DNA of 32,000 nucleotides. Origin: Massilicoli timonensis (GTDB lineage Bacteria; Bacillota_I; Bacilli_A; Erysipelotrichales; Erysipelotrichaceae). A program made the translations under genes and the position numbers. Shown piece after piece: positions 3,446 to 25,372 of this stretch; positions within the stretch are counted from its first letter, which is position 1, and each line of letters starts with the position of its first letter. The stretch lies in the NCBI RefSeq assembly GCF_900199515.1, contig NZ_LT963433.1, positions 120,001-152,000 of the forward strand, given 5' to 3'. The notes beneath the pieces were generated by a model, which saw only the letters and a program-made list of their open reading frames with translations, had not been told where the DNA came from and ran no database searches.

Positions 3446-4648
3446 TTAGGCAGCAGCCATCTTGAGGAGCTTCACGGCTTCGGCAAGAATCAGCTTACCG
3501 TCCACACGCTCCTTCGCAACAAAGCCGACCATACCGTTTCCGGCGAAGAGTTCCTTCAGTTCCGCAAAGGAACGAGTACCACGGTCGCCAATGTTGTAGT
3601 AGTGGAAGTCACCGAATGCCACTGCAGGAAGTCCGGCAGTAATTTCAGGGAAGTAAGGAGAGGTATAGACCTTGTAACCCAGCAAATGACCAGGTTCTCC
3701 CTCCTGGATGGAATCCTGCCAGAGGTAACGGCCGTTTTTGTCAGTCAGCTTACGGATAGCTGCCAAAGTACGGTCATTGCAGAGGAAACAAGCATTCTTA
3801 CGGTAAGGACGCTTAAGGGAGTACACAAGGTCTATGATTTCATCGGAAGTGATTTCTGTTGCAGATGCGGCAGTCACACCGATTTCAGCACCGCCTTCCT
3901 CGGCAAGCAGACCTAAAGGCTGACCAGTGCCGGTACCGTTGAGGAAGGCATCCTCTTCGGCATTTGCCAGAGCCTTGGAGAACTGGCGGATGATGTAATT
4001 CTCAAGACCAAAGGCATTGTCATACAGAAGTTCCTCGGTTACCTTAACGGCAACATGGAGTTTGTGTGCGTCCAGGTTGATCTGGGCGAACTTCGCATCA
4101 CCCCAGGTGAGTTCCTCACCCTCGTCAATCCACGCAGCCGCAGGCTTAGTGGCAGCTATGTTGATTTTACGCTCACCGCTTGTGGTGATGGTGTGCCCCA
4201 GCTTACGGAAGATGTTCTCTTCCTCCAATGCCTCGATAAGGCGGGTGTCATACTCTTCGGGTACGAGATAACCGCCGTCTGCATCCACGCCCTCCTGGAG
4301 AACATTGGAAACATTACGGAAGTTGGTACGGAGAGCCTTAAGCATACCGTCCTTATAGGCATCGGAAGCACGTCCGGTCTTTTCCTTCTTGCCGTCCATA
4401 GGTTTGCCGTTCATAGGCTTTTCAGTGATGGGAGCAGAGGTAGGCTTGGAAAGCTGTGCATCCATAGCGGACATAGCCTCCATACGCTCGATTTCAGCGC
4501 CGTAGTCCTGAACCTTCTTCTCCATCTGTGCATAGGTCTTTGCATCCTCATCGGAAAGCAGACCGTCCTTGTCGCGCTTGGTTTCCACAAAAGCCTTTGC
4601 AGCCTCCCAAGCCTGGTTACGCTTTTCGCGCAGTTCGTTGATAGTCAT
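3446..4648 (-). CDS. Major capsid protein, HK97 family
   Basis: 400 aa with an N-terminal coiled-coil delta-like region (MTINELREKRNQAWEAAKAFVE...). SD GGAGGT. Follows the ClpP-like protease and portal genes. Confidence 0.9.
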   Translation of the reverse strand: MTINELREKRNQAWEAAKAFVETKRDKDGLLSDEDAKTYAQMEKKVQDYGAEIERMEAMSAMDAQLSKPTSAPITEKPMNGKPMDGKKEKTGRASDAYKDGMLKALRTNFRNVSNVLQEGVDADGGYLVPEEYDTRLIEALEEENIFRKLGHTITTSGERKINIAATKPAAAWIDEGEELTWGDAKFAQINLDAHKLHVAVKVTEELLYDNAFGLENYIIRQFSKALANAEEDAFLNGTGTGQPLGLLAEEGGAEIGVTAASATEITSDEIIDLVYSLKRPYRKNACFLCNDRTLAAIRKLTDKNGRYLWQDSIQEGEPGHLLGYKVYTSPYFPEITAGLPAVAFGDFHYYNIGDRGTRSFAELKELFAGNGMVGFVAKERVDGKLILAEAVKLLKMAAA

Positions 4649-4654
4649 AATAAA

Positions 4655-5383
4655 TTACCTCCAATTTTTAATAAGATTTAGCCTGTCCATAAGGTCATCG
4701 GCTTTGGTTTTTCGGGTTTCTTCGGACTTGATTGCACACTTGGCGGCAACCTTATCCATAAGGGAATTGACCACATTTGCCTTGGAATAAAGCATAGACA
4801 CCTGCGGCACTTCCACTTCGTCCGTGGTAGTTCTCTGCATGATTTCATCAGCAAAGCCAAGTTCCACGGCCTTGTTTGCGTCCATCCATGTTTCTGCATC
4901 CATGAGGTGGGACAGCTTTGTACGGGACAATCCTGTCTTAATCTCATAGGCATTGATGATGGAATCCTTGACACTACCGAGCATATCGATGGCTTTCTGC
5001 ATTTCGCCGGAATCACCGAATGCTACCGTCATAGGATTGTGAATCATCATCATGGATACCGGGGACATCAGCACTTTCGTTCCTGCCATCGCAATCACGG
5101 ATGCTGCGGAGGCAGCGATGCCGTCAATCTTGACCGTGACATTGCCCTTGTAATCCATCAGCATATTGTAGATCTGGGCTGCTGCCACGCAGTCACCGCC
5201 GGGTGAGTTAATCCACACGGTAATATCACCGGAGCCTGCCATGAGTTCGTCCTTGAAAAGCTGTGGAGTGACGTCATCGTCAAACCAGCTTTCTTCTGCG
5301 ATTGTTCCGTTCAGAAACAGTGTCCTCGCCTCCGGCATCGTTTCCGTCTGTGCCTGGTTCTTCCACTTCCAGAACTTCTTCAT
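4655..5383 (-). CDS. Prohead maturation protease, ClpP/S14-like
   Basis: INSPGGDCVAAAQIYNML, GIAASAASVIAMAG and MMMIHNP are ClpP-like motifs. Start set at ATG 5383 (perfect SD AAAGGAGGAAAATTCCG-ATG), not the ORF-track start at 5437. Confidence 0.9.
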   Translation of the reverse strand: MKKFWKWKNQAQTETMPEARTLFLNGTIAEESWFDDDVTPQLFKDELMAGSGDITVWINSPGGDCVAAAQIYNMLMDYKGNVTVKIDGIAASAASVIAMAGTKVLMSPVSMMMIHNPMTVAFGDSGEMQKAIDMLGSVKDSIINAYEIKTGLSRTKLSHLMDAETWMDANKAVELGFADEIMQRTTTDEVEVPQVSMLYSKANVVNSLMDKVAAKCAIKSEETRKTKADDLMDRLNLIKNWR

Positions 5384-6644
5384 CGGAATTTTCCTCCTTT
5401 CCGTCATTGTCGGTTGCATTTGCAAAAGCACCCGCATCTTTCAGAGGGAGCATATTGCCGTTGATAAGGTAAAGGTCGCCGCCTTCTTCCGCAGGGATAC
5501 GGTCGAGGTTTTCCAGTTCGCGGATATCGTTTGCCGACATCCAACCGTTCTGACGACCAATGGCGTAGCCGTTCATACGGCTCTGATAATCGCCACGGAG
5601 CAGGCCTTCCACATTGAATTTCACAAAGTAGCATTTCTTTTCATCCTGTGACAGGAGCGTCCTCTGAATGGACTGCTCCCAACGAATGACCCAGGGGTCA
5701 AGGGTGTATTTCACAAACTCAAGGGACTGCTGCTCTATATTAGAAAAGCTCGACTTCTCAAGGTCGCCCACCATATGGGGAGGGACTCTGAAAATTCGAG
5801 CAATTTCATTGATTTGGAACTTCCTTGTTTCAAGGAACTGTGCCTGTTCCGGGGAGATGGAAATCGGTGTATACTTCATTCCTTCTTCCAGAACAGCCAC
5901 CTTATTGGAGTTGGAACTGCCGCCAAAGGCAGCCTGCCAGCTTTCTCTGACCCTCTGCGGATCCTTGATGGTGCTTGGGTGTTCCAACACACCGCCCGGC
6001 GTTGCACCGTTGGCGAAGAACTTGGCACCGTATTCCTCACAGGCAATCGCCATGCCGATGGCGTTCTTTGCCATAGCAATCGGACTGTATCCCACAAGGC
6101 CGTCAAACCCAAGTCCCGGAATATGAAGCACATCGGAAGGCTGCAAGGTTACTGCAAACTCCTTATTTTTGATAGCCTCATCGGGACCACGGTAATAGGT
6201 GTAGTACAGATGTCCGTTTTCATCCCTGTCCACACTCATCTTGTTTGGCATCAGCGGATACAGGGCAACCACCTCATTCTTGCCGTTTCGGATAACCTGG
6301 GCATAGGCATTGCCCCACAGGAGCAGATGGGTCATGAGGGTCTCTCGGAATACGAAAGAACTCATTTCCGGATTCGGCTCATCATGGAGCAATCGGTAAA
6401 GAGGATGGTCGATGGCTTTTTCCTTGCCACCATCATCGTTATATTTATATAAATGCAAAGGCAAGCCTGCCACGGCTTCAGCCAGGATACGGACACAGGA
6501 ATACACCGCCGTCATCTGCATGGCAGAACGCTCTGTCACTGCTTTGCCGGAAGTCGTACCGCCCATATAAAAGGTGTAAGCACTGCCTGCCGTTCTGTTT
6601 TCAGGCTTATCTCTGGACTTAAACATTCCCGTAAAAATACCCAT
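5280..6644 (-). CDS. Portal protein, HK97 family
   Basis: 454 aa, placed between terL and the protease. Family-like sequence with an acidic C-terminal tail. Confidence 0.9.
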   Translation of the reverse strand: MGIFTGMFKSRDKPENRTAGSAYTFYMGGTTSGKAVTERSAMQMTAVYSCVRILAEAVAGLPLHLYKYNDDGGKEKAIDHPLYRLLHDEPNPEMSSFVFRETLMTHLLLWGNAYAQVIRNGKNEVVALYPLMPNKMSVDRDENGHLYYTYYRGPDEAIKNKEFAVTLQPSDVLHIPGLGFDGLVGYSPIAMAKNAIGMAIACEEYGAKFFANGATPGGVLEHPSTIKDPQRVRESWQAAFGGSSNSNKVAVLEEGMKYTPISISPEQAQFLETRKFQINEIARIFRVPPHMVGDLEKSSFSNIEQQSLEFVKYTLDPWVIRWEQSIQRTLLSQDEKKCYFVKFNVEGLLRGDYQSRMNGYAIGRQNGWMSANDIRELENLDRIPAEEGGDLYLINGNMLPLKDAGAFANATDNDGKEENSDEEVLEVEEPGTDGNDAGGEDTVSERNNRRRKLV

Positions 6645-6662: not shown

Positions 6663-8267
6663 CTAAATAAACAAAATGCCGCGGTCATCGTACACGCTGG
6701 CACTATTGGTGTTGCCACAGCGGATTGCACGGTCGAGCGCCATAATGGTAGCAACAGCACCGTCAATCTTTTCTGTGGATTTGGCTTTGTCAGCCTTGAT
6801 GTTTCCGGCAGGGTCGGTCTTGATGTAGATGTTATCCATCATCCAACGAAGAACGGGATGCCCGCCGTGTGCCAGTTTCTTCTCCATCGCAAGTTTCATT
6901 AGCTCCTTGGTTGGAGGAGACATATCCTTGTACCCTTGACCGAAAGGCACTACTGTAAATCCCATACCCTCAAGGTTCTGCACCATCTGCACAGCACCCC
7001 AACGGTCATATGCGATTTCACGGATGTTGTATTTCTCGCCCAATGACTCGATGAATTTCTCAATGTAACCGTAATGGACTACATTGCCCTCGGTGGTCAT
7101 AAGCAAGTCCTGTCGTTCCCAAATGTCATACGGCACATGGTCACGCCGCACACGCAGGTCGATGTTATCTTCCGGTATCCAGAAGTATGGAAGAATGATG
7201 TATTTATCATCCTCATCTTCCGGTGGGAACACCAACACGAAAGCTGTGATGTCCGTTGTGGAAGAAAGGTCAAGACCACCATAGCAGACACGGCCTTCCA
7301 GTTCAGATTTGTCGGTAGGAAACGCACAGGCATCCCACACCGCCATCGGCATCCAACGGACAGCCTGCTTGACCCATTGATTAAGCCTTAACTGACGAAA
7401 GGCATTCTCTTCTCCGGGGTTTTGCTTTGCCTGTTCACAGGCTTGCTGCACCTTGTCGATGCCAACCGTCACACCCAGGGATGGATTTGCTTTCTTCCAT
7501 ACTTCCGGGTCTGTCCAATCGTCATCGTCCTCTGCACCGTAAATCACAGGGTAGAAGGTAGGGTCAACTTTTCGACCTTCGATGATGTCCTTTGCCTTCT
7601 GGTGGGTTTCATAACAGATGGACTGTGTATCGTTTCCCGCCGTGGTGATCAGGAAATAAAGCGGCTGCATTCTTGCATCGCCGGAACCCTTGGTCATTAC
7701 ATCAAACAGTTTTCTGTTCGGTTGGGTATGCAGCTCATCAAAAATAACGCCGTGGGTATTGAAACCGTGCTTGTTTGCCACATCCGCAGACAGTGCCTTG
7801 TACTTACTTCCTGTAGGATTGTAGGTCATGGTCTTCTGGCTTGCCTGGATGGTCATTTTATTTTTCAGCAGAGGACTTCGCCTTACCATCTCCAAAGCAA
7901 CGTCAAATACGATTCGTGCTTGGTCTTTATCCGCAGCACAGCCGTAAACCTCTGCACCCGGCTCAAAGTCAGCACACAGAAGATACAATGCCACAGCCGC
8001 TGCAAGTTCCGATTTGCCTTGTTTCTTCGGTATCTCGATATAAGCTGTGTTAAACTGTCTGTATCCGTTTGGTTTCAGAACACCGAAAATATCACGGATA
8101 ATCTGCTCCTGCCAGTCAATCAGTTCAAATGGCTTTCCATCCCATGTGCCTTTGGTATGACAGCAGAATTTTTCGATAAAGCATACTGCGTGGTCGGCAG
8201 CATCTTTATCGTAATAGCTGCCCTCCGCCATAAAGCGGGTTGGTTTGTAGTTTTTCAGTTTTCGCAA
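6663..8267 (-). CDS. terL: Terminase large subunit
   Basis: 534 aa with a Walker A-like IPKKQGKSEL. TTG start at 8267 with SD GAGGAGGTGA 6 nt upstream. Lies upstream of the portal gene. Confidence 0.92.
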   Translation of the reverse strand: MRKLKNYKPTRFMAEGSYYDKDAADHAVCFIEKFCCHTKGTWDGKPFELIDWQEQIIRDIFGVLKPNGYRQFNTAYIEIPKKQGKSELAAAVALYLLCADFEPGAEVYGCAADKDQARIVFDVALEMVRRSPLLKNKMTIQASQKTMTYNPTGSKYKALSADVANKHGFNTHGVIFDELHTQPNRKLFDVMTKGSGDARMQPLYFLITTAGNDTQSICYETHQKAKDIIEGRKVDPTFYPVIYGAEDDDDWTDPEVWKKANPSLGVTVGIDKVQQACEQAKQNPGEENAFRQLRLNQWVKQAVRWMPMAVWDACAFPTDKSELEGRVCYGGLDLSSTTDITAFVLVFPPEDEDDKYIILPYFWIPEDNIDLRVRRDHVPYDIWERQDLLMTTEGNVVHYGYIEKFIESLGEKYNIREIAYDRWGAVQMVQNLEGMGFTVVPFGQGYKDMSPPTKELMKLAMEKKLAHGGHPVLRWMMDNIYIKTDPAGNIKADKAKSTEKIDGAVATIMALDRAIRCGNTNSASVYDDRGILFI

Positions 8268-8621: not shown

Positions 8622-8801
8622 TCAGTCCTCCATTTTGCCTGTAAGAATGAAGTGGGTGTATTCCTTTCGGTGTTCCTCAAGATACACCACTAATTCGTAA
8701 AAATGCATCTCGTTGGCAATGTATTGTACCATCGGCACATCAAACATATTGGTACGTCCGGTTGCTCGGATGGCGAGAATCTGTTCCTTGATTTTATTCA
8801 T
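8622..8801 (-). CDS. DUF5049-like small protein
   Basis: MNKIKEQILAIRATGRTNMFDVPMVQYIANEMHFYELVVYLEEHRKEY matches my memory of DUF5049 proteins. ATG at 8801 with SD AAGGAGGT, overlapping the upstream stop by 8 nt. Confidence 0.6.
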   Translation of the reverse strand: MNKIKEQILAIRATGRTNMFDVPMVQYIANEMHFYELVVYLEEHRKEYTHFILTGKMED

Positions 8802-9180
8802 CGGTGCAGACCTCCTTGCCCATAAGAAGTTCCGTGTAAATTTTGGTGTAGCGTTCACACTCGCTGCCCTCGGAACCCGCAATGGCTCTAAGGTAGAAAT
8901 CGGCAGCCTCTTTTCTGCTGTCCCAAACTTCCGTCTGACCGTAGCAGGTAATCTTCACAGCATCCAGTTTTCGACAAATATCGACACCATACACCACATT
9001 CAAGCCGGAGCCTGTATCCCAACGAACCATGATGGATGCGGTATCATCTACGCCTCTGACCGTACCCTTTGTTCCAATAGGTGGTGCCTGTACATCTTCC
9101 ATCTGTACCAGTTCCACACGGCATCCTACAGGGTATTCTTTTCTGACACGCTCAACCGCTTCTCTATCCGGAAATCTCAT
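8794..9180 (-). CDS. DUF4314 domain protein
   Basis: YPVGCRVELVQMEDVQAPPIGTKGTVRGVDDTASIMVRWDTGSGLNVVYGVD resembles the DUF4314 signature as I recall it. ATGA overlap with the upstream gene. Confidence 0.6.
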   Translation of the reverse strand: MRFPDREAVERVRKEYPVGCRVELVQMEDVQAPPIGTKGTVRGVDDTASIMVRWDTGSGLNVVYGVDICRKLDAVKITCYGQTEVWDSRKEAADFYLRAIAGSEGSECERYTKIYTELLMGKEVCTDE

Positions 9181-10052
9181 TCTGCCACCTCCTCGACAAG
9201 GCAGTATCCACTGCCAAGTTCTTCTGCAATGTCCGCACCGATGCGTTCAGCCTCCACACTGTTTGTGGCAGTGAAGATTTTGAAGTTATCATCGTCAAGT
9301 TCCACTCGGTAGGTCTTTTCCGTTTTCGGTGCCTTAAAAGCACTGCTGCCGGAAAGGTTGCGGAGCAGGATTTTTCGCTCGGTCTTGTATTCATTTCCGA
9401 TAAAGCCGAGGCGGAGGAGAAAACAGCGGAATGCGTATTTCTCATTGTCCACCGCTTTTTCCGTGGCATTGATGCGTTTCTGATTTTTGCTCATTTCACA
9501 AAGGGCGGCAATGAAGTGGCTGTAAGCCTTGACCTCATCGGCATCCAATCCTTCTTCAAACCAAGGGAAGGAAACCCTGTCCTCGCCGATTTCGATTGGT
9601 GTTGCCGAAATGCCCAGTGCCTTCTTGATAAGACTGCCCTTGGCATCCAGAAGATTTTTAAGGTTACCGACCGCAACCTTATCAAGGGGAATCGCCACCG
9701 TAAGCCCCACCGTTTCGCCCTGTGGCTCGTTTTCGGAAGGGGCAAGGTAATCCGACGGGCAATCTTCCGTCGGCTCTTCTTCGGAAATTACGGCCTCCTG
9801 CTGTTCGCTGTCATAACGGGAGAAGTCACTCTCAAAGCCTGCATCGTAAAGATGCTCCAGAAGTCTTTCAATGACCTCGCTGTCTGCCATATCATCAAAC
9901 AGCAGGTTGCCTTCCTTGTCGATTGTGAAGTAGTCTACTTCGTATGCGCAGGAAGGGACTCCCTTATACCTGCAATCGACCTCAAGCCAGGTGGCTATGG
10001 TCTGTGCCAGTTCCTTGCGTTTTTTACCGGGAACATTGTAATGAATTTTCAT
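9177..10052 (-). CDS. Hypothetical protein (~291 aa) with an acidic central linker
   Basis: ATG at 10052 with SD TAGGAGGT; the ORF-track start at 10058 is a TTG. No catalytic motif recognised. Confidence 0.65.
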   Translation of the reverse strand: MKIHYNVPGKKRKELAQTIATWLEVDCRYKGVPSCAYEVDYFTIDKEGNLLFDDMADSEVIERLLEHLYDAGFESDFSRYDSEQQEAVISEEEPTEDCPSDYLAPSENEPQGETVGLTVAIPLDKVAVGNLKNLLDAKGSLIKKALGISATPIEIGEDRVSFPWFEEGLDADEVKAYSHFIAALCEMSKNQKRINATEKAVDNEKYAFRCFLLRLGFIGNEYKTERKILLRNLSGSSAFKAPKTEKTYRVELDDDNFKIFTATNSVEAERIGADIAEELGSGYCLVEEVAE

Positions 10053-10126
10053 GTGCAAAACCTCCTATCGTTTTGGTAGTACACATATTCGCTCTAAAAC
10101 CGATAAATAGCAAGTCATATGTGCAA

Positions 10127-10151: not shown

Positions 10152-11969
10152 TTACACCCCTTCATTTTGTGTATAGTACACGATGCCTGTCAGCACATAC
10201 ACCACATTGGGCAGTGCCACGCCGTTGCCCCACATCTTATACTCCGCCGAGTCGGAATGAGGATTCTGCAGCCACTTGAAGATTTGTTTCCGTGTCTTTG
10301 GTTTGCTTGATGTTCCCACAATCTTACGATGTGTTTCAAAGATTTCTGCCCACCGTGTGAGTTCCTCTTCAGAAGGAAGTTTCTCACCAAGGTCAGCGCA
10401 CCACCAATCTGGAAATCCCTGGAGCCTTGCACACTCCGTAGGGGTAAGTCTGCGGACAATGTATTCCAGATCCGAATCTGTGTCATTGACAAGCGGAGGA
10501 TCTTTGTAATCCGTAGCTACTAAAGTGTTGGCAAGTTCCTCTTCCGCAGAAGTAAAGAACGATGCCTTACTGCTTGAGTAGGTGGGAACGGCAACCGCAT
10601 CGGGTCCCGTGGCTTTCAGTGTAGAATTGATGCCCTCATCACTGATTCCCATATTCCTTGCGAAGTTCTGACCGCAGTTATAACTTTCACGGTCGATAGC
10701 GTAAACAACGGCGTGACGGTCTACGGTGTTTAGGGTGTACATGACATCACTTTCCGCATAACCGTTGCCGTGGTGGGAAGGACGGGAGCCGTTGCCTTCC
10801 ACGATGGCAATGCCGCCCTGGTTGCAGGTGGGGTTACCACCGTTCCCATCAAGGGTACGGGAGGTATCTGCTTTATAAAAACCGCTGTTGGGGTTTGCCG
10901 ATTTCATGGCATTGCTGTCCTTGGAGCAGACACCAAAAGCGGTCGGCTCTACCACAAACGGCTGATTGTTTCCGCCTGTGCCGTAAGTAGCCGCCACGGT
11001 CTGTGCAACATCAAGGGGGCCCACATAGCGGGTATCCTGGGAGTGATTTTCATAAACCGTTGCAGGAACGACTCCCGCTCGGAGCGTCGGAGATTTTTCC
11101 TCCTCATAACCGATGCCACGGCTATCAGCAGAATGTTCCGTACAAAATCCCGCAGACTCCATTACGCAAGGCGGATGGTGTGCCTCGGCTCGGAGAGTGC
11201 AGGTAACATCATCGGTGACATCCATACGGTTACCACCCTGGTCATTTAAGACGATGCCTGTCGCAGGAGTGCTTTCTTCAGAAGTTCCGGCAGTTCTTTT
11301 CCACGGGCATCGGCTCGCCTCAAGATTCCCAAACAGGCCTTCTGACTCAAATAATATTTTTCCGGCACACCCACCATTAAAATCTGCGACAAGATAGATA
11401 CGTCTTCTTCTCTGGGGAACTCCCCAATACTGCGCGTCAACGCATCTCCATGCGATACTGAAACCGTCTCCCAACAGTTCTCCTGCTCCTGTCCATTTTC
11501 CTTTTGGAGGACAAGGCACAGCATAGTCGCCTTTGACGGATGCGACTGCTTCGAGGACTGCTTTGAAATCCTCTCCTGCGTTTGAGGAGAAGGCGCCGGG
11601 GACATTTTCCCACACGATGTATCTTGGATACTCACCATTGGTTTTACACCTCATTTCTTTTACGATTCGGATTGCTTCGTAGAACAGGCAGGAGCGTTCT
11701 CCATCAAGACCACTGCGTTTTCCCGCCACACTCATATCCTGGCAGGGAGAACCGAAAGTGATGATATCCACGGGGTCAATCTCCGCACCGCTTATGGTGG
11801 AGATGTCACCGAGGTGTTTCATCTGCGGAATACGCTTGCTTGTTACACGAATAGGAAAAGGCTCAACTTCCGATGCCCACAAAGGGGTAATACCGGAAAT
11901 CAAGCCTCCCAGAGGAAATCCCCCGGAGCCGTCAAAGAGGCTGCCGAGGGTCATAGGTTTTTTATTCAT
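10152..11969 (-). CDS. DNA (cytosine-5)-methyltransferase with a very large variable region
   Basis: Motif I LFDGSGGF, IV GSPCQDMS, VI WENVPG, VIII QRRRRIYLV, then about 300 aa, then TPTECARLQGFP and GNGVALP. ATG at 11969 with SD GAAGGAGGT, overlapping the upstream stop (ATGAATAA). Confidence 0.92.
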   Translation of the reverse strand: MNKKPMTLGSLFDGSGGFPLGGLISGITPLWASEVEPFPIRVTSKRIPQMKHLGDISTISGAEIDPVDIITFGSPCQDMSVAGKRSGLDGERSCLFYEAIRIVKEMRCKTNGEYPRYIVWENVPGAFSSNAGEDFKAVLEAVASVKGDYAVPCPPKGKWTGAGELLGDGFSIAWRCVDAQYWGVPQRRRRIYLVADFNGGCAGKILFESEGLFGNLEASRCPWKRTAGTSEESTPATGIVLNDQGGNRMDVTDDVTCTLRAEAHHPPCVMESAGFCTEHSADSRGIGYEEEKSPTLRAGVVPATVYENHSQDTRYVGPLDVAQTVAATYGTGGNNQPFVVEPTAFGVCSKDSNAMKSANPNSGFYKADTSRTLDGNGGNPTCNQGGIAIVEGNGSRPSHHGNGYAESDVMYTLNTVDRHAVVYAIDRESYNCGQNFARNMGISDEGINSTLKATGPDAVAVPTYSSSKASFFTSAEEELANTLVATDYKDPPLVNDTDSDLEYIVRRLTPTECARLQGFPDWWCADLGEKLPSEEELTRWAEIFETHRKIVGTSSKPKTRKQIFKWLQNPHSDSAEYKMWGNGVALPNVVYVLTGIVYYTQNEGV

Positions 11970-13227
11970 CTGCACCAACCTCCTTCACAAGGTCGGCATA
12001 CGGTATCTGCACACCGTTACGGATAACAAAGACACCGTCTGCATCACCTGTATCTTCCACATATCTGCGGAGGATGACCGATGCGTACTTTTCATCCAGT
12101 TCCATCGTATGGCAGATGCGATTGGTTCTTTCACAAGCCATCAGCGTAGAACCACTGCCACCAAAGGTGTCGACCACGATGGAATTCTCACGGCTTGAGT
12201 TTCCAATCGGGTAGGCAAGCAGGTCAAGTGGCTTGGAAGTCGGATGGTTTTTATTTTTCTTCGGCTTATCGAAGTTCCAGATGGTGGTCTGACTTCTGCC
12301 TGCGTTTTTGCTCCAGTAGTGCTTGCCGTTCTGAAGGAAACCGTAAAGCACGGGTTCGTGCTGCCACTGATAATCACTTCTGCCAAGCACCAGGGAGTTT
12401 TTCACCCAAATGCAGCAGCCGGAAAGATGAAAGCCTGCATCGATAAATGCCTTACGGAAATTCAAGCCTTCCGTATCAGCATGGAACACATAGGCAGCAC
12501 CGCCTTTTTCCAGGTGGGCAGCCATATTCTGAAATGCCGAAAGCAGAAATTCATAAAACTTCTCGCTTGCCATCTTATCGTTTTTGATGGACAGACCATC
12601 GGAACTTTCAAAGGCTACATTATATGGAGGGTCGGTCAGCACAAGGTTGGCTTTCTTACCATCCATAAGTGTTGCAACGTCATCGGGATTTGTGGCATCA
12701 CCGCACATCAGTCTGTGTCTGCCTACCGTCCACACATCACCACGTTCCACAAAGGCAGCCTTTTCCAAGGCATCGCTTAAATCAAAATCGTCCTCTTCCA
12801 CATCAGACTTATCATCTCCTGTAAAGAGGTCTGCGATTTCATCATCGTCAAAGCCTGCCAGGCCGATATCAAAATCCATGCCCTGCAAGGACTCGATTTC
12901 GATTTTTAACATCTCCTCGTCCCATCCTGCATCAAGCACCATACGGTTGTCTGCAAGGATGTAGGCTTTCTTCTGTGCCTCGGTAAGGTAGTCCACAAAA
13001 ACACAAGGCACCTCATCGATGCCTTCTTCCTTGGCAGCCATCACACGGCCGTGTCCGGCAATGATACCGTAATCCTTATCAATAATGACGGGATTGATAA
13101 AGCCGAACTCACGGAGCGAAGAACGGAGTTTCATAATCTGCTCCGGAGAATGGGTGCGGGCATTATTTACATACGGCACTAATTTTGTAATGGAAACGAG
13201 TTCCATCTGCGTTGTTGTTCTTCCCAT
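11962..13227 (-). CDS. ParB-like N-terminal domain fused to an N6-adenine/N4-cytosine DNA methyltransferase (DPPY type)
   Basis: LVPYVNNARTHSPEQIMKLRSSLREFGFINPVII...GHGR is ParB/Srx-like. LVLTDPPYNV followed by VVDTFGGSGST gives beta-class motif order. ATG at 13227 with SD TAAGGAGGG. Confidence 0.9.
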   Translation of the reverse strand: MGRTTTQMELVSITKLVPYVNNARTHSPEQIMKLRSSLREFGFINPVIIDKDYGIIAGHGRVMAAKEEGIDEVPCVFVDYLTEAQKKAYILADNRMVLDAGWDEEMLKIEIESLQGMDFDIGLAGFDDDEIADLFTGDDKSDVEEDDFDLSDALEKAAFVERGDVWTVGRHRLMCGDATNPDDVATLMDGKKANLVLTDPPYNVAFESSDGLSIKNDKMASEKFYEFLLSAFQNMAAHLEKGGAAYVFHADTEGLNFRKAFIDAGFHLSGCCIWVKNSLVLGRSDYQWQHEPVLYGFLQNGKHYWSKNAGRSQTTIWNFDKPKKNKNHPTSKPLDLLAYPIGNSSRENSIVVDTFGGSGSTLMACERTNRICHTMELDEKYASVILRRYVEDTGDADGVFVIRNGVQIPYADLVKEVGADE

Positions 13228-13237
13228 AGCACCCTCC

Positions 13238-14020
13238 TTAATACAGACCCCATTCAGCGAACTTTTCAAAACCGCCGAGGCTGTGAATGTACTGACGGGC
13301 AATGTCTACGATTTCCGCATAAGGCTTACCATCAATGGTGTCATCTCCGATGGCACAGCAAAGCTGCACAGGCTCTTTGATTTTCTGTGCCTTAAGGAAC
13401 GCATAGATATTTACAGACACATCCGCCTTGGATAAGTCCTTACCGTGCAGACCGCCACCTGTAACGGAATCAGCCATATCCGAACCGAGTTTACGGTTGG
13501 TAGCACCTGTATCTACATTGGTGCCGCCAGTCCAATCACCGAGAGGATTTACCTCTGTAAGAGGACACTTGATACGAAGAATGTCGGTCGGAGCATTACT
13601 CTGACAAACAATAAATCTGTTTCCGTCTGCGATGTATTTCCCGTCATACGGATACTCCTCATAAATTTCACGAGCCATTCTGGAAAGGTTCTTCTGCTCG
13701 GGTGTTAAAGGCATACCCTTAAAGATCCCGTTATCTCCGCAACGCACACCGTCCTTCTGATTATCCGACAGGTGCTTATCCTGGGGAACGATAACGATGT
13801 CCGTATCCATCACGCCTGCGATACGATGCACGGCGTTTATAATTTCTGCTCTGTCCAAATCTGCTGTGGTTTCAATAATGGCATGGCACACACCATGGCC
13901 GATTAAAACCTCCACAGCAATCTTCGGATTTTCTTCTTTTGCATAAGCCAGATCCACAATGGCTCCTGCGATTCTGTCTGCCACCTTGTCCGGATGGCTC
14001 GGATTTACTTTTTCAATCAT
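13238..14020 (-). CDS. Compact S-adenosylmethionine synthetase (MetK-like), 260 aa
   Basis: By-eye alignment to E. coli MetK: SHPDKVADRIAGAIVD vs GHPDKIADQISDAVLD; CGDNG vs GAGDQG; VDTGATNRK vs GDCGLTGRK; GGGLHGKDLSKADVS vs GGGAFSGKDPSKVDRS. About one third shorter than bacterial MetK. Confidence 0.8.
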   Translation of the reverse strand: MIEKVNPSHPDKVADRIAGAIVDLAYAKEENPKIAVEVLIGHGVCHAIIETTADLDRAEIINAVHRIAGVMDTDIVIVPQDKHLSDNQKDGVRCGDNGIFKGMPLTPEQKNLSRMAREIYEEYPYDGKYIADGNRFIVCQSNAPTDILRIKCPLTEVNPLGDWTGGTNVDTGATNRKLGSDMADSVTGGGLHGKDLSKADVSVNIYAFLKAQKIKEPVQLCCAIGDDTIDGKPYAEIVDIARQYIHSLGGFEKFAEWGLY

Positions 14021-14022
14021 AG

Positions 14023-14580
14023 TTAAAACCCCTTTCGTTGGTGCAATAGTCGTTCCAGGTCATCATTCGGATTCGTACCAGAGAAGTCCACGGAACAGTT
14101 TTCTTTTACGATTTGCATGATGTTGTCCCACTGCCTTGAGGCTTGGTTCATATAGTTGATGCCGATGTTGATGAACGGGGAGGTGACAGGCTTTCCGGTT
14201 GTGGGATGCTTTGATAGAAATCCCAGCTCGTTTGTCATTTCCTCGCACTGCAGCCAACGGGCAACGCACATGGCATAGCGTTCAATGGTCTGTGGGGAAA
14301 CATAACCCGCACAGCCGATGGAATTGAGCCAGTTCCAGGTATCCTCATAAATCTGCTTTGCTCTCAGTTCCGTACCGTCACGCTGCTTTGCACTGAGCAG
14401 TTCATTTGGTTTCGGCATCTGGATACCCTCCACATCGGGGATATCCAGCATCGTAAGTTTGCGACCGCCGGGGTTGCCGTTCTGAGCCTTTTCTAAATTG
14501 GACTTCGGCTTACGACCTGCACCCGGACGTTTTCCACCACGGCCGCCTGTGTTATTCGATTTTGTTGGCACATTTCTCAC
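14023..14580 (-). CDS. terS: Terminase small subunit, P27 family
   Basis: KPKSNLEKAQNGNPGGRKL...YAMCVARWLQCEEMTNELGFL resembles P27-family terS, and the gene sits downstream of HNH. The GTG start at 14580 is uncertain; the in-frame GTG at 14571 is also possible. Confidence 0.8.
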   Translation of the reverse strand: MRNVPTKSNNTGGRGGKRPGAGRKPKSNLEKAQNGNPGGRKLTMLDIPDVEGIQMPKPNELLSAKQRDGTELRAKQIYEDTWNWLNSIGCAGYVSPQTIERYAMCVARWLQCEEMTNELGFLSKHPTTGKPVTSPFINIGINYMNQASRQWDNIMQIVKENCSVDFSGTNPNDDLERLLHQRKGF

Positions 14581-15197: not shown

Positions 15198-15623
15198 TTA
15201 TATTTTGATGGGGTTTTCCGGCATCACCACATGGTTAAGGGCACTGTTATGCCAACGGTACACCGTGGTTCTGTCGGCGTGGAGTTCATCCCCAATCTGC
15301 TCCCAGGTAAGGTTATGGATATAACGGTAACGCAGAACCATACGCTCATCGGTATTGGAAACCTCATCAATAACAGTGCGTATCTGCTTTTTCAGTTCCA
15401 CAAGGTTGTCGATTTCTGCGTTTATTTTATCTTCCAGTTCCATAATCTTAAAAACGCTGCGTACAAAAGGTGCATCCGTATTTCTTGAAGTCTGCACACG
15501 CTCCTCCCATGTGGGAGAAGAAATGCTACTCGACATTTCCCTCAATTTCCCAAGTTCCTCAATATCCGAGTTGATTCTTTGGTCAAGTCGGTATGCCTGT
15601 CCTAAATATTCTTTAACTTTCAC
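15198..15623 (-). CDS. Late transcriptional regulator, ArpU/RinA/DUF1492-like (sigma-70 region-4-like HTH)
   Basis: C-terminal ERMVLRYRYIHNLTWEQIGDELHADRTTVYRWHNSAL is region-4-like. Sits directly upstream of HNH-terS, as Firmicutes phage late activators do. GTG start in a GTGA overlap, with SD GGAGGTGG. Confidence 0.7.
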   Translation of the reverse strand: MKVKEYLGQAYRLDQRINSDIEELGKLREMSSSISSPTWEERVQTSRNTDAPFVRSVFKIMELEDKINAEIDNLVELKKQIRTVIDEVSNTDERMVLRYRYIHNLTWEQIGDELHADRTTVYRWHNSALNHVVMPENPIKI

Positions 15624-15844
15624 GATTCTTCCACCTCCGCTTGTAATTTGGAGATTAAATACTCTCCATCCACTGAGGTAAGTTCCCTATACCACGCAGA
15701 GCGGAAGAACCTCTCCACCTCATCTTTCATTATTTTCGCTGACTCATTTCTGGGCCATTTTTTCAGTTTCTTAAGGGCATCCCTGTAGTCTTTTACAGCT
15801 AACAGGACGATGCTGTTTGCAAGATTTTCATAAGGGTCGGTCAA
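15620..15844 (-). CDS. Hypothetical protein (74 aa)
   Basis: TTG start overlaps the SNF2 stop (TTGA), with SD GGAGGTG 7 nt upstream. Confidence 0.6.
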   Translation of the reverse strand: MTDPYENLANSIVLLAVKDYRDALKKLKKWPRNESAKIMKDEVERFFRSAWYRELTSVDGEYLISKLQAEVEES

Positions 15845-17196
15845 TGGGCAGCACCTCCAATTCTGGCTTTCACGGAATCGATAAGAGCCGATTGGATTTT
15901 CTCTTTTTTACGGAGTGCCTTCATCACATCCTCGTCAATGGTGTCCTTTGTAATAATATGATGGATAACAACGGTACTCTGCTGACCCTGTCTCCACAAG
16001 CGGGCGTTGGTCTGCTGATACAGTTCCAGTGACCAGGTCAACCCAAACCATATAATCGTGGAGCCGCCAAACTGGATGTTCAGACCGTGTCCTGCACTGG
16101 CAGGATGGATAACGGCAACAGGGATATTTCCGTTGTTCCAATCCTTGATGTCCTGGCTTGTTTTAATTTCTCTTACAGAAAAACGCTGTTTGATTCTCTG
16201 CAAATCGTGGTTATACCAATATGCCACAAGCACAGGCTTTCCGTTTGCACCTTCAATCAAATCCTCAAGGGCATCCAGTTTACGGTCATGGATGTGAATG
16301 ACCTCTTTTTCTTCGTTATAGACGGCACCGTTTGCCATCTGAAGAAGTTTACCGGAAAGTGCTGCAGCATTTACGGCATCAATCTCCTCATCCTTAAGGT
16401 CAACCACCATATCCTCTTTCAAGGCTTGGTACACCGACCACTCTTTTTCCGAAAGGGAAACAGGCACTTCATTGATGATGCATTCCGGCATTTTCAAGAA
16501 ATCCGCTGATTTCATGGAAATCGTAATATCCGAAATCAGTCTGTAAATGGCATCCTCCGCACCAGGTCTTGGCTTGTAGGAGAAAATCATCTGCTGATTT
16601 CTCTTATCCGGCACAAAGAAGTTGTTTCGGTAGTGGGTGATGTATCTGCCAAGCCTCTGACCCATATCAAGCACTCTAAACTCTGCCCATAAATCCATAA
16701 GACCGTTGCTTGACGGAGTACCCGTAAGTCCCACCATTCTTTTTACCGTAGGTCTTACTTTCAGAAGGCTTTTGAACCTTTTCGCTGAGTGGGATTTGAA
16801 GGAAGACAACTCATCAATCACCACCATATCAAAATCAAAGGGGATACCGCTTTTTGTAATCAGCCAGTCCACATTTTCTCGGTTGATTAAGTACAGGTGT
16901 GCGGGACGCTTTAAGGCTGCAAGCCTTTCAGCCTCCGTTCCAATTGCTACGGAATAGGTAAGACCCTCCAGATGCTCCCACTTTTCAATCTCCGCAGGCC
17001 AGGTATCCCTTGCCACACGAAGGGGAGCAATCACAAGAACCTTCTGCACTTCAAATCGGTTCAGCATCAGTTCGTATATGGCAGTCAGCGTGATGACGCT
17101 CTTACCAAGACCCATCTCAAGTAGAACCGCCGCCACCGGATGTTCCAGTATAAAATTCGTTGCATAAGTCTGATATTCATGGGGATTGTATCGCAT
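15841..17196 (-). CDS. SNF2-family helicase
   Basis: Motif I EMGLGKS, motif II VIDELSSFK, motif VI QQTNARLWRQGQ. ATG at 17196 with SD GGAGGTG. Confidence 0.9.
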   Translation of the reverse strand: MRYNPHEYQTYATNFILEHPVAAVLLEMGLGKSVITLTAIYELMLNRFEVQKVLVIAPLRVARDTWPAEIEKWEHLEGLTYSVAIGTEAERLAALKRPAHLYLINRENVDWLITKSGIPFDFDMVVIDELSSFKSHSAKRFKSLLKVRPTVKRMVGLTGTPSSNGLMDLWAEFRVLDMGQRLGRYITHYRNNFFVPDKRNQQMIFSYKPRPGAEDAIYRLISDITISMKSADFLKMPECIINEVPVSLSEKEWSVYQALKEDMVVDLKDEEIDAVNAAALSGKLLQMANGAVYNEEKEVIHIHDRKLDALEDLIEGANGKPVLVAYWYNHDLQRIKQRFSVREIKTSQDIKDWNNGNIPVAVIHPASAGHGLNIQFGGSTIIWFGLTWSLELYQQTNARLWRQGQQSTVVIHHIITKDTIDEDVMKALRKKEKIQSALIDSVKARIGGAAH

Positions 17197-17458
17197 CAAT
17201 CACACCTCCAATCTGCTCGATACTGTCAACGCAGAAAACCTTAAAACCGAGGCTTTCCAACTGTTTTCTACGTCTTATCTGTAAAGGACGCATCTTTTTA
17301 CCGGGAGCCTTAAGTTCCACAAATGCCATTCTTCCCATTGGCAAAAGCACAAGTCTGTCCGGCACACCATCTAAACCAGGACTTACAAACTTCGGTGCGA
17401 TGCCTCCCATTTTCTTCACTGCGTCCGTGAATTTTTTCTCTATAAACTGTTCTCTCAT
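17177..17458 (-). CDS. VRR-NUC domain nuclease
   Basis: GVPDRLVLLP...AFVELKAPG (D...ExK) in a 93-aa protein next to the SNF2 helicase. SD GAGGTG. Confidence 0.8.
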   Translation of the reverse strand: MREQFIEKKFTDAVKKMGGIAPKFVSPGLDGVPDRLVLLPMGRMAFVELKAPGKKMRPLQIRRRKQLESLGFKVFCVDSIEQIGGVIDAIQSP

Positions 17459-21031: not shown

Positions 21032-23020
21032 TTAATCTTTTTTATAAAAATCGCATTCGTATCCGTCTGCACGAAGGAGCAAACCTTTCGCCCAAGGCGG
21101 AGTCCTGCCCATCTGCTCACAAACGGCATCCAGGGAAACCCTACGGTCACATTCAATGATAATTTCATCGTGGACATGGGCAACGATGTCGCAGTGGCTG
21201 AGTGTTTGAATGGCGAACATCAGAATATCCCTGGCAATGGCCTGCACGGCATTCTCCGTAAACTTGGGACCGTAGCTTTCCAAACGCTCCCACTTCTTTG
21301 TAGCACCCACACCTTCATAGGTGACCGCCTCGCCGCCGAACTGGTTCTCTCCCATGCGTGGTTTTACATAGGCAAGCTGTCTGCCGGACGGAAGGGTCAG
21401 AAACAGGAATCCACTTTGATAGTGGAACTTCAAGCCATGCGTTTCCACGGCAGTCTTCTGTTTCACGCAGGTCTTTACGGCACGGTCAATATCCCACCAA
21501 AGCCTGGTTATCATAGGGTTGGCATTTCTCCACGCAGACACAAGCGGTTGCAGTTCTTCTTCCGCAATGCCCATATCCAAGGCACCCATTGCTTTCAAGG
21601 CACCGACCGAGCCACCATAACCCAGGGCGAGTTCTGCGATTTTACCTTTTTGACGGAGATGTCCGTTCACGCCGTGCTTTTCTACCGGAACGCCAAACAT
21701 CTGCGATGCACTGCTGCAATAAATGTCTTTGCCTTCCTCGAATACCTTAATTCTCCACTGTTCGCCTGCAAGCCAAGCCAACACCCTCGCCTCAATTGCA
21801 GAAAAGTCTGCTACGATAAATTTTCTGTCCTTCTGTGGCACAAAGGCAGTACGGATAAGCTGTGACAGGGTATCGGGGATATCTTCATATAAAAGTTCCA
21901 AGGCATCGTAATTTCCGCTACGCACAAGACCACGAGCCTCTGCCAGATCTTCCATGTGGTTCTGTGGTAGGTTCTGTAATTGAATCAACCTTCCTGCAAA
22001 TCGTCCGGTACGATTGGCTCCGTAAAACTGAAACATACCCCTTGCACGGTTATCTCTGCACACAGCGTTCTCCATAGCCGTGTATTTTTTAACACTGCTC
22101 TTGGCAAGCTGCTGACGAAGGGACAGTACATCGGTAATATCCTGTGGTGCCGTTTTGATTGCCGCCGCCACTTCTTTTTTACCGAGGCTCTCCATCTCCA
22201 TACCGTTATCCGATAGCCACATCTTCATCTGCTGCACGGAATTAGGATTGTCGAGATTTGTCATATCCTGCATTCTGGCAGTCAGATGTTCACGGCTCTT
22301 ACTGTCGATTTCGATTGCCTCTTTTACAAGCACCATATCCACACCGATACCACGGTCATTGATTTCTTCACTCACATGGTATTCATCCCAAATCTTATCC
22401 GATACCGGAAAGCGTGACAGCTTTGCCTGGATACCCATTTCGGTTTCCACATCACGGAGGTTGTATGCCTTAAACTGCTGCCACTTTTCCATATCATGCT
22501 CCGGCAGATTTCTTGTGCGACCACCGTTTACCTTGGTCGGTGCACAGGGAACGCAGAAATATTTGATTAAGGATTTACCCTCGGTCAGCTTCTGTTTCTC
22601 CAAACCAAGAACAGCACCCACACCCTCAAGAGAAAGCGGCAGACCTAAAGTTGCCGCCCAAATCATAGTACAGTGCCAACTTGCCGGATTTAAGAAACGG
22701 GCGCACTCCTGCGACAAAGGGTGGTTATCATAGAACGGGTCAAGGCTTACACCCATATCCGATAAATATCGGGACAGGCAGACTCTTTCAAAAGTTGCGT
22801 TATACGCCGTTTTTATAATGGAATCATCGGTCAGTGCATCAATAACTTCTGCAGGTATACTCTCCCCACAGGCAAGGTCAACCACCTGCACAGCACCGCC
22901 GTCCACGGCATAACCGAACAGTAATATTTCAAAATCCTCGCTCTCTGCATATTTGTACACACCGCATTTTTGCAGATTGACCGAGGAGAAGGTTTCAATA
23001 TCTATACTTAATACTTTCAT
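21032..23020 (-). CDS. Family A DNA polymerase with 3'-5' exonuclease domain
   Basis: Exo I LSIDIETFS, motif A ADFSAIEARVLAWL, motif B RQKGKIAELALGYGG, motif C VHDEIIIE. Confidence 0.93.
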   Translation of the reverse strand: MKVLSIDIETFSSVNLQKCGVYKYAESEDFEILLFGYAVDGGAVQVVDLACGESIPAEVIDALTDDSIIKTAYNATFERVCLSRYLSDMGVSLDPFYDNHPLSQECARFLNPASWHCTMIWAATLGLPLSLEGVGAVLGLEKQKLTEGKSLIKYFCVPCAPTKVNGGRTRNLPEHDMEKWQQFKAYNLRDVETEMGIQAKLSRFPVSDKIWDEYHVSEEINDRGIGVDMVLVKEAIEIDSKSREHLTARMQDMTNLDNPNSVQQMKMWLSDNGMEMESLGKKEVAAAIKTAPQDITDVLSLRQQLAKSSVKKYTAMENAVCRDNRARGMFQFYGANRTGRFAGRLIQLQNLPQNHMEDLAEARGLVRSGNYDALELLYEDIPDTLSQLIRTAFVPQKDRKFIVADFSAIEARVLAWLAGEQWRIKVFEEGKDIYCSSASQMFGVPVEKHGVNGHLRQKGKIAELALGYGGSVGALKAMGALDMGIAEEELQPLVSAWRNANPMITRLWWDIDRAVKTCVKQKTAVETHGLKFHYQSGFLFLTLPSGRQLAYVKPRMGENQFGGEAVTYEGVGATKKWERLESYGPKFTENAVQAIARDILMFAIQTLSHCDIVAHVHDEIIIECDRRVSLDAVCEQMGRTPPWAKGLLLRADGYECDFYKKD

Positions 23021-23345: not shown

Positions 23346-23894
23346 TTATGCCAAGAAATCGTCATCCTCAACAGTGGAGAAATCATCGGTTGCGGAAGTA
23401 CGGCCACCGAGATACTCACCATCACGGATTTTCTGAATGTTGCCAAGACCGCAGGCAACACCACGATTACCGTTACTGTTAAATGCGTAGAAGTTCAAAG
23501 ACACTCTCGCATAACAGCCGGAGTAAACCTCATCACGGTCGAGGATAGGCTTAACCGCCTTGTCCACAATCTGAGGAGCCGTAGTGCTGTTTGCGTTCAC
23601 GAAATAATGACCCTTGTAGGCATCATCATCTCTTTCAACATCGCCGTCACGAAGAGGCAGTTTGATTGCACCCTTGTTAGGCTTTTTGCCGCCGAACTTG
23701 GCGATGCCTTCCTCAATCGCAGCATCCACTGCAGCGTTGATAGCGTTGATGGTTTCGGTATCGTCCTTCGGAATCAACACGGATACGGAATACTTTTCAG
23801 CACCACCATTGATGCTGACAGGCTCCCAACCGTGGAAGTAAGAAAGACGAGTGTTCTTGCCAGTGATAACCTTAGTTCTGTTTACGTTTGCCAT
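23346..23894 (-). CDS. DUF2815 / T7 gp2.5-like single-stranded DNA-binding protein
   Basis: 182 aa with an acidic C-terminal tail ...TVEDDDFLA. Adjacent to the DUF2800 and DNA polymerase genes, a typical module. Confidence 0.75.
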   Translation of the reverse strand: MANVNRTKVITGKNTRLSYFHGWEPVSINGGAEKYSVSVLIPKDDTETINAINAAVDAAIEEGIAKFGGKKPNKGAIKLPLRDGDVERDDDAYKGHYFVNANSTTAPQIVDKAVKPILDRDEVYSGCYARVSLNFYAFNSNGNRGVACGLGNIQKIRDGEYLGGRTSATDDFSTVEDDDFLA

Positions 23895-25029: not shown

Positions 25030-25372
25030 TGCCAAGCACCTCCGCATCCTTAATAAGGTCTGCATAGTGCTTCGGGTCCACATCCGACAGCTTGCTGCCG
25101 CCGTACTTGGTAATCAAACCCTTTACCTCGGCTGTCATACCGTTCTGCGTCTTAACCGCAAGCACAGCACGGACATCTGCCAAAGTAGGCACCTTTTCTG
25201 CTATCTGCTTTGTGGGTTGTCCTGTTTCGACAGGCTTCGACACTTCCTTGGCATCAACGAAGATTTCCTGGCTGTCAGCAAATGCGTAAGCCACAGCTTC
25301 CAGTCCGTCTGCCAGTGAGTGCATCAGCTTCACCACATCGAGGAGCAGATTAAATTTGTTAGCGTTTGTCAT
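25022..25372 (-). CDS. Hypothetical protein (116 aa)
   Basis: ATG with SD AAGGAGG. No family recognised. Confidence 0.6.
   Translation of the reverse strand: MTNANKFNLLLDVVKLMHSLADGLEAVAYAFADSQEIFVDAKEVSKPVETGQPTKQIAEKVPTLADVRAVLAVKTQNGMTAEVKGLITKYGGSKLSDVDPKHYADLIKDAEVLGNG

Follow-up and report, generated by a model that had tools for sequence, protein, structure and literature searches.

Genes around mini-MAT in the predicted packaging operon

The stretch of Massilicoli timonensis DNA analyzed here, 32,000 nucleotides in length (hereafter, the window), appears to belong to a siphophage or prophage of the Candidatus Heliusvirales. All nine marker functions listed for this group (PMC11283538) are present in the window: MCP (3446-4648), protease (4655-5437), portal (5280-6644), TerL (6663-8267), SNF2 helicase (15841-17199), VRR-NUC (17177-17458), DNA_pol_A (21032-23020), an Enc34 ssDNA-binding protein (23346-23894) and a DUF2800/PDDEXK protein (23899-25083). 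The authors of the Heliusvirales survey delimit the clade by a TerL HMM bit score above 700 (PMC11283538). The TerL encoded in the window is 80-84.5% identical to its counterparts in the NatCom Heliusvirales genomes, among them the reference NatCom_991, which strongly suggests that this phage is a member of the group. A gene for the R subunit of a type I restriction system adjoins the prophage.

The gene that is the focus of this analysis (13238..14020, minus strand) is a 260-aa ORF with an ATG start codon that encodes a putative MetK-like SAM synthetase, denoted mini-MAT below. The minus-strand genes are arranged in the order primase, VRR-NUC, SNF2 helicase, small ORF, sigma-like DUF1492 regulator, HNH and terS, followed by mini-MAT, ParB-MTase, C5-MTase, amidoligase-like ORF, small ORF, terL, portal, protease and capsid. 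The two terminase subunit genes bound an accessory cassette, with the small subunit (terS; 14023..14580, minus strand; phrog_83, E=1e-29) on the upstream side and the large subunit (terL; 6663..8267, minus strand; phrog_9, E=4e-194) on the downstream side. The ATG of mini-MAT is located 2 nt past the terS stop codon and is served by an AAAGGGG Shine-Dalgarno sequence. The two methyltransferases that the original prediction placed directly downstream of this gene are readily identified by Pfam and NCBIfam as a protein combining ParB_N and N6_N4_Mtase domains and a C-5 cytosine methylase, respectively. The first of these (11962..13227, minus strand; 421 aa) matches PF02195 and PF01555 in Pfam, phrog_498, and adenine-methyltransferase-like models of NCBIfam. 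It starts with the ATG at 13227, preceded by a GGAGGG Shine-Dalgarno sequence, and is separated from the mini-MAT stop codon by a 10-nt gap; the overlap of the two genes in the raw ORF list is ruled out by this start. The second methyltransferase (10152..11978, minus strand; PF00145, E=5.4e-40; TIGR00675 dcm) has a maximal ORF of 608 aa and probably starts with the ATG at 11969, overlapping the end of the ParB-MTase gene. The presence of the C5-MTase in the cassette varies: many related loci have it, and others lack it. The remaining two genes of the cassette, the amidoligase-like ORF (9177-10058, minus strand) and a small ORF (8794-9180, minus strand), are variable accessory genes that co-vary as a pair across related loci; they match phrog_2443 and phrog_2431, and neither has a match in Pfam or NCBIfam.

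A scan for promoters and terminators near mini-MAT yielded counts within the shuffled expectation and is uninformative, and no riboswitch, other Rfam RNA element or tRNA was found near the gene. Given the 2-nt junction with terS, the promoter and terminator signals not above chance, and no Rfam element, mini-MAT appears to be part of the packaging operon, the late timing of which we infer from gene position.

Homology, predicted fold and catalytic residues of mini-MAT

Mini-MAT matches the N-terminal domain of SAM synthetases in Pfam (S-AdoMet_synt_N, PF00438; E=5.6e-10, 40.1 bits against a gathering score of 33.1). The match to the C-terminal domain (PF02773) is below the threshold (13.9 against 25 bits), and there is no match to the central domain (PF02772). 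The score of mini-MAT with the NCBIfam metK equivalog model TIGR01034 (42.9 bits) falls short of the cutoff (309.4 bits), so that, by the standard of this model, the protein classifies as a remote homolog of MetK rather than an equivalog. The PHROGs family phrog_1569, labeled 'unknown function', covers residues 1-259 of mini-MAT (E=3.6e-66). A phmmer search against PDB retrieved only MATs, at 1e-10 and in two stretches, and hhalign comparison of the mini-MAT family profile with E. coli MetK yielded a probability of 97.9% (E=3e-13) for the alignment of residues 2-229 with 8-308; the identity to bacterial MetK is about 23%. Taken by itself, this sequence evidence of MetK likeness is modest. Nevertheless, mini-MAT is a true, even if very divergent, homolog of MetK/MAT, and the homology is well above chance.

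The model of the mini-MAT monomer obtained with AF2 from a 128-sequence alignment, for which more diverse relatives were gathered by two profile searches, has a pLDDT of 93.2 and pTM of 0.92. An AF2 model built from a shallow set of 54 sequences that share at least 76% identity was discarded; it had a pLDDT of 66, disordered catalytic loops and a Foldseek TM of about 0.4. In a Foldseek search with the former model, the best 50 PDB matches are all MATs, with E-values down to 5.7e-18; the query-normalized TM is 0.63-0.77, and the alignments cover the entire MAT chain. There was no significant match in the BFVD viral structure library, and among the significant sequence and structure matches of mini-MAT, there are SAM synthetases only and no SAM lyases. 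Because these best matches are all MATs aligned along the whole chain, mini-MAT is predicted to adopt the complete three-repeat MAT fold in a shrunken form, rather than that of a MetK that has lost any one domain. The active sites of MATs are located at the dimer interface, and the MetK residues that both subunits contribute are all conserved in mini-MAT, which is consistent with a homodimer with composite active sites.

The 260-aa mini-MAT is 68% of the length of E. coli MetK (384 aa; the reference sequence was checked to be identical to PDB 7ll3_A), in agreement with the original estimate of about two thirds. The structure prediction and alignment with MetK that had been suggested for delineating the missing segments indicate, together with predicted secondary structure, that the approximately 124 residues by which mini-MAT is shorter are scattered over at least 10 peripheral sites. 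The two largest losses are about 45 residues at the C-terminus and about 22 around the fourth helix. Smaller ones include the 6 N-terminal residues, about 11-14 residues past the second helix, about 11 and about 8 flanking the third helix, about 9 within the fifth helix and about 4 in the region of the gating loop, as well as a beta-hairpin tip and a few residues of the catalytic loops. With so many residues missing, the stability, oligomerization or kinetics of mini-MAT could differ from those of MetK. Relatives of 346-415 aa do not qualify as intermediates on the path to canonical MetK: the Pfam central domain is missing from these proteins, too, and they seem to be variants with insertions.

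The four substrate- and metal-binding motifs named in the original prediction were all found, and each aligns with the corresponding motif of MetK. These are HPDKVAD (residues 9-15; 13976..13996, minus strand), in which the H, D and K are kept in all 330 relatives; GDNG (residues 95-98; 13727..13738, minus strand), in which D96, likewise kept in 330 of 330, corresponds to Asp118 in the GAGDQG motif of E. coli; DTGATNRK (residues 170-177; 13490..13513, minus strand), in which D170, R176 and K177, along with W163 just upstream, are kept in 329-330 of the 330 relatives; and the phosphate and metal loop GGGLHGKDLSKAD (residues 188-200; 13421..13459, minus strand), with K194, K198 and D200 conserved in all 330. 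The gating loop, with its MetK Q...NQ signature (Q80...N87-Q88 in mini-MAT), is retained as well and is followed by GDNG.

As the catalytic and ligand-binding set, we took 16 positions of MetK (E. coli numbering) that we consider established for the family. In the alignments, His14, Asp16 (a Mg2+ ligand) and Lys17 correspond to H9, D11 and K12 of mini-MAT; Glu42 (K+ site) to E37; Glu55 and Gln98 (methionine) to E50 and Q80; Asp118 to D96; Phe230 (adenine stacking) to W163, a replacement of Phe by Trp; Asp238 to D170; Arg244 and Lys245 to R176 and K177; and Lys265, Lys269 and Asp271 to K194, K198 and D200. The equivalence of Asp163 and Lys165 with D126 and K128 is an indirect one, given that sequence aligners place gaps differently in this low-confidence segment; it is suggested by structural logic, by the invariance of the DGK motif and by its equivalent location at the hairpin base. 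Thus, catalytic residues are not missing, a finding on which the original prediction had been made to depend: 16 of the 16 have counterparts, including the inferred D126 and K128. Each of these positions is conserved in 328-330 of the 330 relatives, and dN/dS for mini-MAT is about 0.1 (Nei-Gojobori), which is indicative of purifying selection. Three rare relatives, P0187, P0210 and P0213, lack 7-9 of the 16 residues; being singletons on contigs shorter than 2 kb for which no close relatives were found in IMG/VR, they tell little about the family.

This pattern bears on the possibility, raised in the original prediction, that mini-MAT is a decoy or inhibitor of host MetK, that is, a non-catalytic poison subunit that forms hetero-oligomers with the host enzyme and inhibits or re-regulates it. 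With active sites formed at the dimer interface, a homolog could conceivably pair with subunits of the host enzyme, and the three degenerate relatives could be cited as examples of such subunits, although their singleton status and short contigs make them poor witnesses. A poison subunit is not expected to keep 16 catalytic and ligand-binding residues nearly invariant across hundreds of relatives, and a pure binder has no reason to preserve them in the window protein. Furthermore, mini-MAT is only about 23% identical to the bacterial MetK with which it would have to pair, and a block of SAM synthesis would starve the adjoining methyltransferases. The decoy role thus appears highly improbable.

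A change of chemistry, whereby the protein would make a SAM analog for a non-methyl DNA modification, possibly jointly with the amidoligase-like neighbor, is equally hard to credit. Substrate specificity is not revealed by the sequence, E. coli MetK accepts other NTPs (PDB 7lo2, 7ll3, 7lnn), and an amidoligase-like gene is indeed present in the cassette. However, the residues equivalent to Glu55, Gln98 and Asp238, which bind methionine in MetK, are invariant, and so is the AIG motif (I224-G225 in mini-MAT), which we take to match Ile302 of E. coli; the adenine-stacking position is invariably aromatic; and the amidoligase pair is missing from many loci that retain mini-MAT.

Linkage to SAM-dependent enzymes and relationship to known phage MetK proteins

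Related loci were drawn from IMG/VR (two samples) and from the species representatives of GTDB (one sample), and linkage was counted in the 206 loci with at least 1300 bp downstream of mini-MAT. A SAM-using enzyme, in most cases a methyltransferase, is encoded directly beside mini-MAT in 194 of the 206: the ParB-N6/N4 methyltransferase in 185, a radical SAM/SPASM enzyme in 5, a C5 methyltransferase in 3, and a DUF1848 protein in 1. Nine more loci encode a SAM-dependent enzyme elsewhere in the locus, and in 3 no SAM user was detected. Relatives of mini-MAT with as little as 44-45% identity are also located beside ParB_N and a DNA methyltransferase, and the smallest accessory cassettes consist of mini-MAT and the ParB-MTase alone (loci L024, L031 and L035). 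The raw synteny counts overstate the number of independent events because the 206 loci, coming from one phage order, are phylogenetically connected. Nevertheless, the neighbors that are not methyltransferases are usually radical-SAM enzymes, and the main thing that these two classes of enzymes have in common is the SAM cofactor, which argues that the linkage goes beyond inherited synteny.

A search of the relatives for Rosetta-stone proteins, in which mini-MAT would be fused with a methyltransferase, found none. The two candidates, P0123 and P0185, turned out to be an intein-like insertion and a chimeric gene call, respectively; the insertion in P0123 falls exactly inside the loop equivalent to GGGLHGKDLSKAD.

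The mini-MAT family is large, with at least 8000 clusters at 90% identity and 1320 clusters at 50% identity (E<=1e-3). More than 511 species-representative genomes, almost all of them from Bacillota, encode a member of the family, and among the matches listed, the nearest one in a genome comes from a Candidatus Fimenecus MAG (98% identity). In deposited phage genomes, the homologs are mostly labeled 'hypothetical protein'. The gene class itself is not new, contrary to what the original prediction implied. S-adenosylmethionine synthetase (K00789) was reported in 58.9%, and a C5-methyltransferase in 67%, of 1032 Heliusvirales genomes (PMC11283538). The NatCom Heliusvirales genomes hold mini-MAT homologs with 69-77% identity, so mini-MAT very probably represents the class that was counted as K00789 in that survey. 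The survey provides a KEGG annotation tally alone, whereas the size, catalytic completeness and linkage of this class come from the present analysis.

The comparison with known MetK proteins points to an old, separate lineage. E. coli MetK (PDB 7LOO, 7LL3, 1FUG) shares with mini-MAT the three-repeat fold (Foldseek E=5.7e-18, TM 0.74) and the residues for catalysis and for the binding of metal, phosphate, methionine and adenine, with the single Phe230 to Trp change; mini-MAT differs in its size (260 against 384 aa), the identity of only about 23%, its location in a phage, in a predicted late operon, and the lack of a riboswitch. Three-domain phage MetK proteins are represented by orf29 of Phi1207.3 (353 aa) and the protein of Streptococcus phage Javan20 (345 aa). 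These show 50% identity to E. coli MetK and exceed the thresholds of all three Pfam domains, and their modules (helicase ... SAM synthetase ... ParB-adenine methyltransferase, C5 methyltransferase, terminase) are syntenic with that of mini-MAT. Mini-MAT falls outside this three-domain class and, being only 24% identical to Javan20 MetK, appears to be a separate, deeply diverged old lineage and not a recent truncation of a three-domain phage MetK. That two such different MAT lineages occupy the same slot argues that SAM synthesis is what selection keeps in this position of the cassette. For the SAM synthetase of Phi1207.3, the role of supplying the methyl donor to the phage methylase was proposed in 2014 (PMC4260502), and the same role is proposed here for mini-MAT.

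A truncated MetK has also been described in the Streptococcus agalactiae prophage 12/111phiA (2021); it is 135 aa shorter than E. coli MetK, and its catalytic region is said to be intact (PMC8223999). By this description, it resembles mini-MAT, and the gene adjoins one for an endonuclease. The two proteins differ in the role ascribed to them: the S. agalactiae prophage MetK was assigned host phenotypes (aggregation, biofilm), whereas mini-MAT is read here as serving phage DNA methylation. The S. agalactiae precedent suggests another explanation of mini-MAT, namely lysogenic conversion, in which the prophage gene is a moron that raises the SAM level of the lysogen and alters AI-2, polyamines, the cell surface and biofilm, and has no part in the methylation of phage DNA. 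In S. agalactiae, deletion of the truncated metK led to less aggregation, shorter chains, and diminished glycocalyx and biofilm, and plasmid-borne metK partly restored these traits; in most of the complemented strains, however, the phenotype was not restored, there were secondary mutations, and the study included no enzymology (PMC8223999). The mostly temperate lifestyle of Heliusvirales and the listing of SAM synthetase among their auxiliary metabolic genes (PMC11283538) fit lysogenic conversion as well. What makes it distinctly unlikely is the genomic context. Mini-MAT is embedded in the packaging operon between terS and terL, with junctions of 2 nt and 10 nt and promoter signals not above chance, and its constant neighbors are phage DNA methyltransferases.

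In a limited literature search, which does not firmly establish absence, no published enzymology was found for the 260-aa class. Both the gene family and the supply idea are already known, and mini-MAT is a further member. What is added here is that the 260-aa form is predicted to be a complete, streamlined MAT fold, that its catalytic set is intact and under constraint, that it represents an old lineage separate from that of the three-domain phage MetK proteins, and that the SAM users encoded next to it belong to more than one enzyme class.

Proposed function of mini-MAT

MetK uses Mg2+ and K+ in converting ATP and L-methionine to SAM and in splitting the resulting PPPi to PPi and Pi. We consider it probable that mini-MAT is an active, riboswitch-free SAM synthetase that supplies the SAM-dependent enzymes of the phage. 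Expressed within the late packaging operon, in close translational coupling between terS and the ParB-N6/N4 methyltransferase, it would similarly turn ATP and L-methionine into SAM, adding to the infected cell SAM-making capacity that is outside the regulatory control of host metK. This SAM would feed the adenine or N4-cytosine methyltransferase and the C5-cytosine methyltransferase of the phage, so that many new phage genomes could be fully methylated ahead of packaging and would be shielded from restriction in the next host. Such a scheme supposes that mini-MAT is enzymatically active, that it assembles into a dimer, that it is made late, and that SAM would limit phage methylation. The hosts have their own metK already, and SAM limitation in the infected cell is an assumption of the supply model. 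Local SAM supply for self-methylation was among the proposals of the original prediction, and it gains in silico support from the predicted fold, the catalytic set, purifying selection and the linkage to SAM users.

The opposite strategy is known from phage T3, the SAM lyase of which degrades SAM and polymerizes MetK (PMC8406200; PDB 8bb1). Both phage proteins manipulate, or in the case of mini-MAT would manipulate, the SAM pool of the host in connection with restriction-modification, but the folds are unrelated, and T3 keeps its DNA unmethylated and disables SAM-dependent restriction. The T3 enzyme shows that SAM and MetK are contested targets (PMC8406200), which brings up counter-defense, also among the proposals of the original prediction, as another explanation: the phage MAT would maintain SAM when host MetK is shut down or SAM is destroyed, be it by a host response or by the SAM lyase of a competing phage. 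A protein as divergent as mini-MAT probably lacks the surfaces to which such inhibitors bind, and the type I restriction R subunit gene beside the prophage is compatible with a role in defense conflicts. Against this explanation, no SAM-depleting defense was identified within the window, and extra SAM would also help the SAM-dependent type I/III and BREX restriction systems. Counter-defense, which we regard as improbable, overlaps with the supply of SAM to phage methyltransferases and does not replace it.

Host metK in Bacillota is typically under SAM-riboswitch control. An extended version of the supply model, tentative and rather unlikely in its full form, is that mini-MAT is a minimal catalytic core of MAT, dedicated to making SAM and not subject to host regulation. 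Control by the SAM riboswitch, and perhaps also product feedback, would not apply to it; it might be physically coupled to the ParB-MTase, so that SAM would be made where replicated DNA is methylated before packaging; and the same module would be reused for radical-SAM enzymes in other phages.

Characterized MATs are typically about 380-400 aa or longer. If active, the 260-aa form would be much smaller and would show which parts of an ancient, universally conserved enzyme are dispensable; it could then be of use in studies of enzyme evolution and in the engineering of compact producers of SAM or SAM analogs. These findings do not overturn the current understanding but rather supply a mechanism for a gene that is already cataloged. 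A large proportion of the phages in an order that is present in most human guts encode mini-MAT, as do more than 500 species-representative genomes of Bacillota. Because the gene is so widespread, the combination of phage SAM supply with self-methylation could be a common means of restriction evasion in the gut, a mirror image of the destruction of SAM by T3.

Accessory genes and putative regulators around the mini-MAT gene

The cytosine C5 methyltransferase (10152-11978, minus strand) of the accessory cassette, the terS-terL interval that also carries the mini-MAT (the compact MetK-like SAM synthetase), is unusually long, at 608 aa. Its N-terminal catalytic half comprises residues 1-198 and the C-terminal motifs occupy residues ~505-606, with ~300 residues in between; the C-terminal half matches phrog_38038, a family labeled in PHROG as having unknown function. 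This protein may be a multispecific-type enzyme with additional target-recognition modules. The same cassette includes an amidoligase-like ORF and a 128-aa ORF (8794-10058, minus strand; phrog_2443 and phrog_2431, respectively), the former without a Pfam or NCBIfam match. These two ORFs co-travel across related phages as a variable pair of the cassette, and the Terrisporobacter phage TPDSL_ph1 encodes an amidoligase and a gamma-glutamyl cyclotransferase in a position resembling that of this pair.

In five loci of mini-MAT relatives on GTDB genome contigs (L116, L121, L149, L159, and L165), the ParB-methyltransferase is replaced by a radical SAM/SPASM enzyme of ~455-468 aa that directly follows the mini-MAT and for which there is no NCBIfam equivalog. 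Other neighbors are a DUF1848 protein together with a ParB_N protein (L126) and a DUF362/4Fe-4S protein (L134).

Two small sigma-70 region-4-like proteins are encoded on the minus strand of the window, at 15198-15623 and at 25663-26151. The former also matches DUF1492, and its gene is located immediately upstream of the HNH-terS-mini-MAT block; this position, along with the DUF1492 match, suggests that the protein is a phage late-gene regulator of the mini-MAT-containing operon.

The probable prophage flank

Beside the phage genes, the minus strand encodes a YgjP-like metallopeptidase (28095-28961) and HsdR (28852-31962), the complete R subunit of a type I restriction system. From ~26 kb onward in the window, the GC content is 0.40-0.44, clearly below that of the phage part (0.46-0.51). 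The region 28095-31962 is probably a host flank or a defence island adjoining the prophage. Neither an integrase nor an attachment site was identified in the window.

Insertions and degeneration in the mini-MAT family

The mini-MAT homolog P0123 (582 aa), which comes from the search of representatives and lies outside the window, contains an insertion of ~330 aa that splits the phosphate loop exactly within the motif, between GGGL and GKDLSKAD. The insertion begins with CLSGDS, includes LTPYHEML and ends with FITGN, followed by a cysteine; its start, LTPYHEML and its end are hallmarks of inteins. The Pfam matches of P0123 at E <= 0.001 include no intein domain. An intein at this position would be consistent with a functionally critical loop.

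Five full-length but rare family members appear to have lost several counterparts of the 16 catalytic and ligand residues of Escherichia coli MetK: P0187, P0210, and P0213 lack 7-9 of these, and P0134 and P0225 lack 3-4. Each of the first three comes from one contig shorter than 2 kb, and no close relatives of P0187 and P0213 were found in the IMG/VR scans. All five could be inactive paralogs or decaying copies.

Six further members of the same divergent family (P0200, P0217, P0223, P0237, P0238, and P0243) contain insertions and reach 346-415 aa, with 48-56% identity to the window mini-MAT over the aligned stretches; the Pfam central MAT domain is not recognizable in any of these. Thus, members of the mini-MAT family differ considerably in size about a shared catalytic core.
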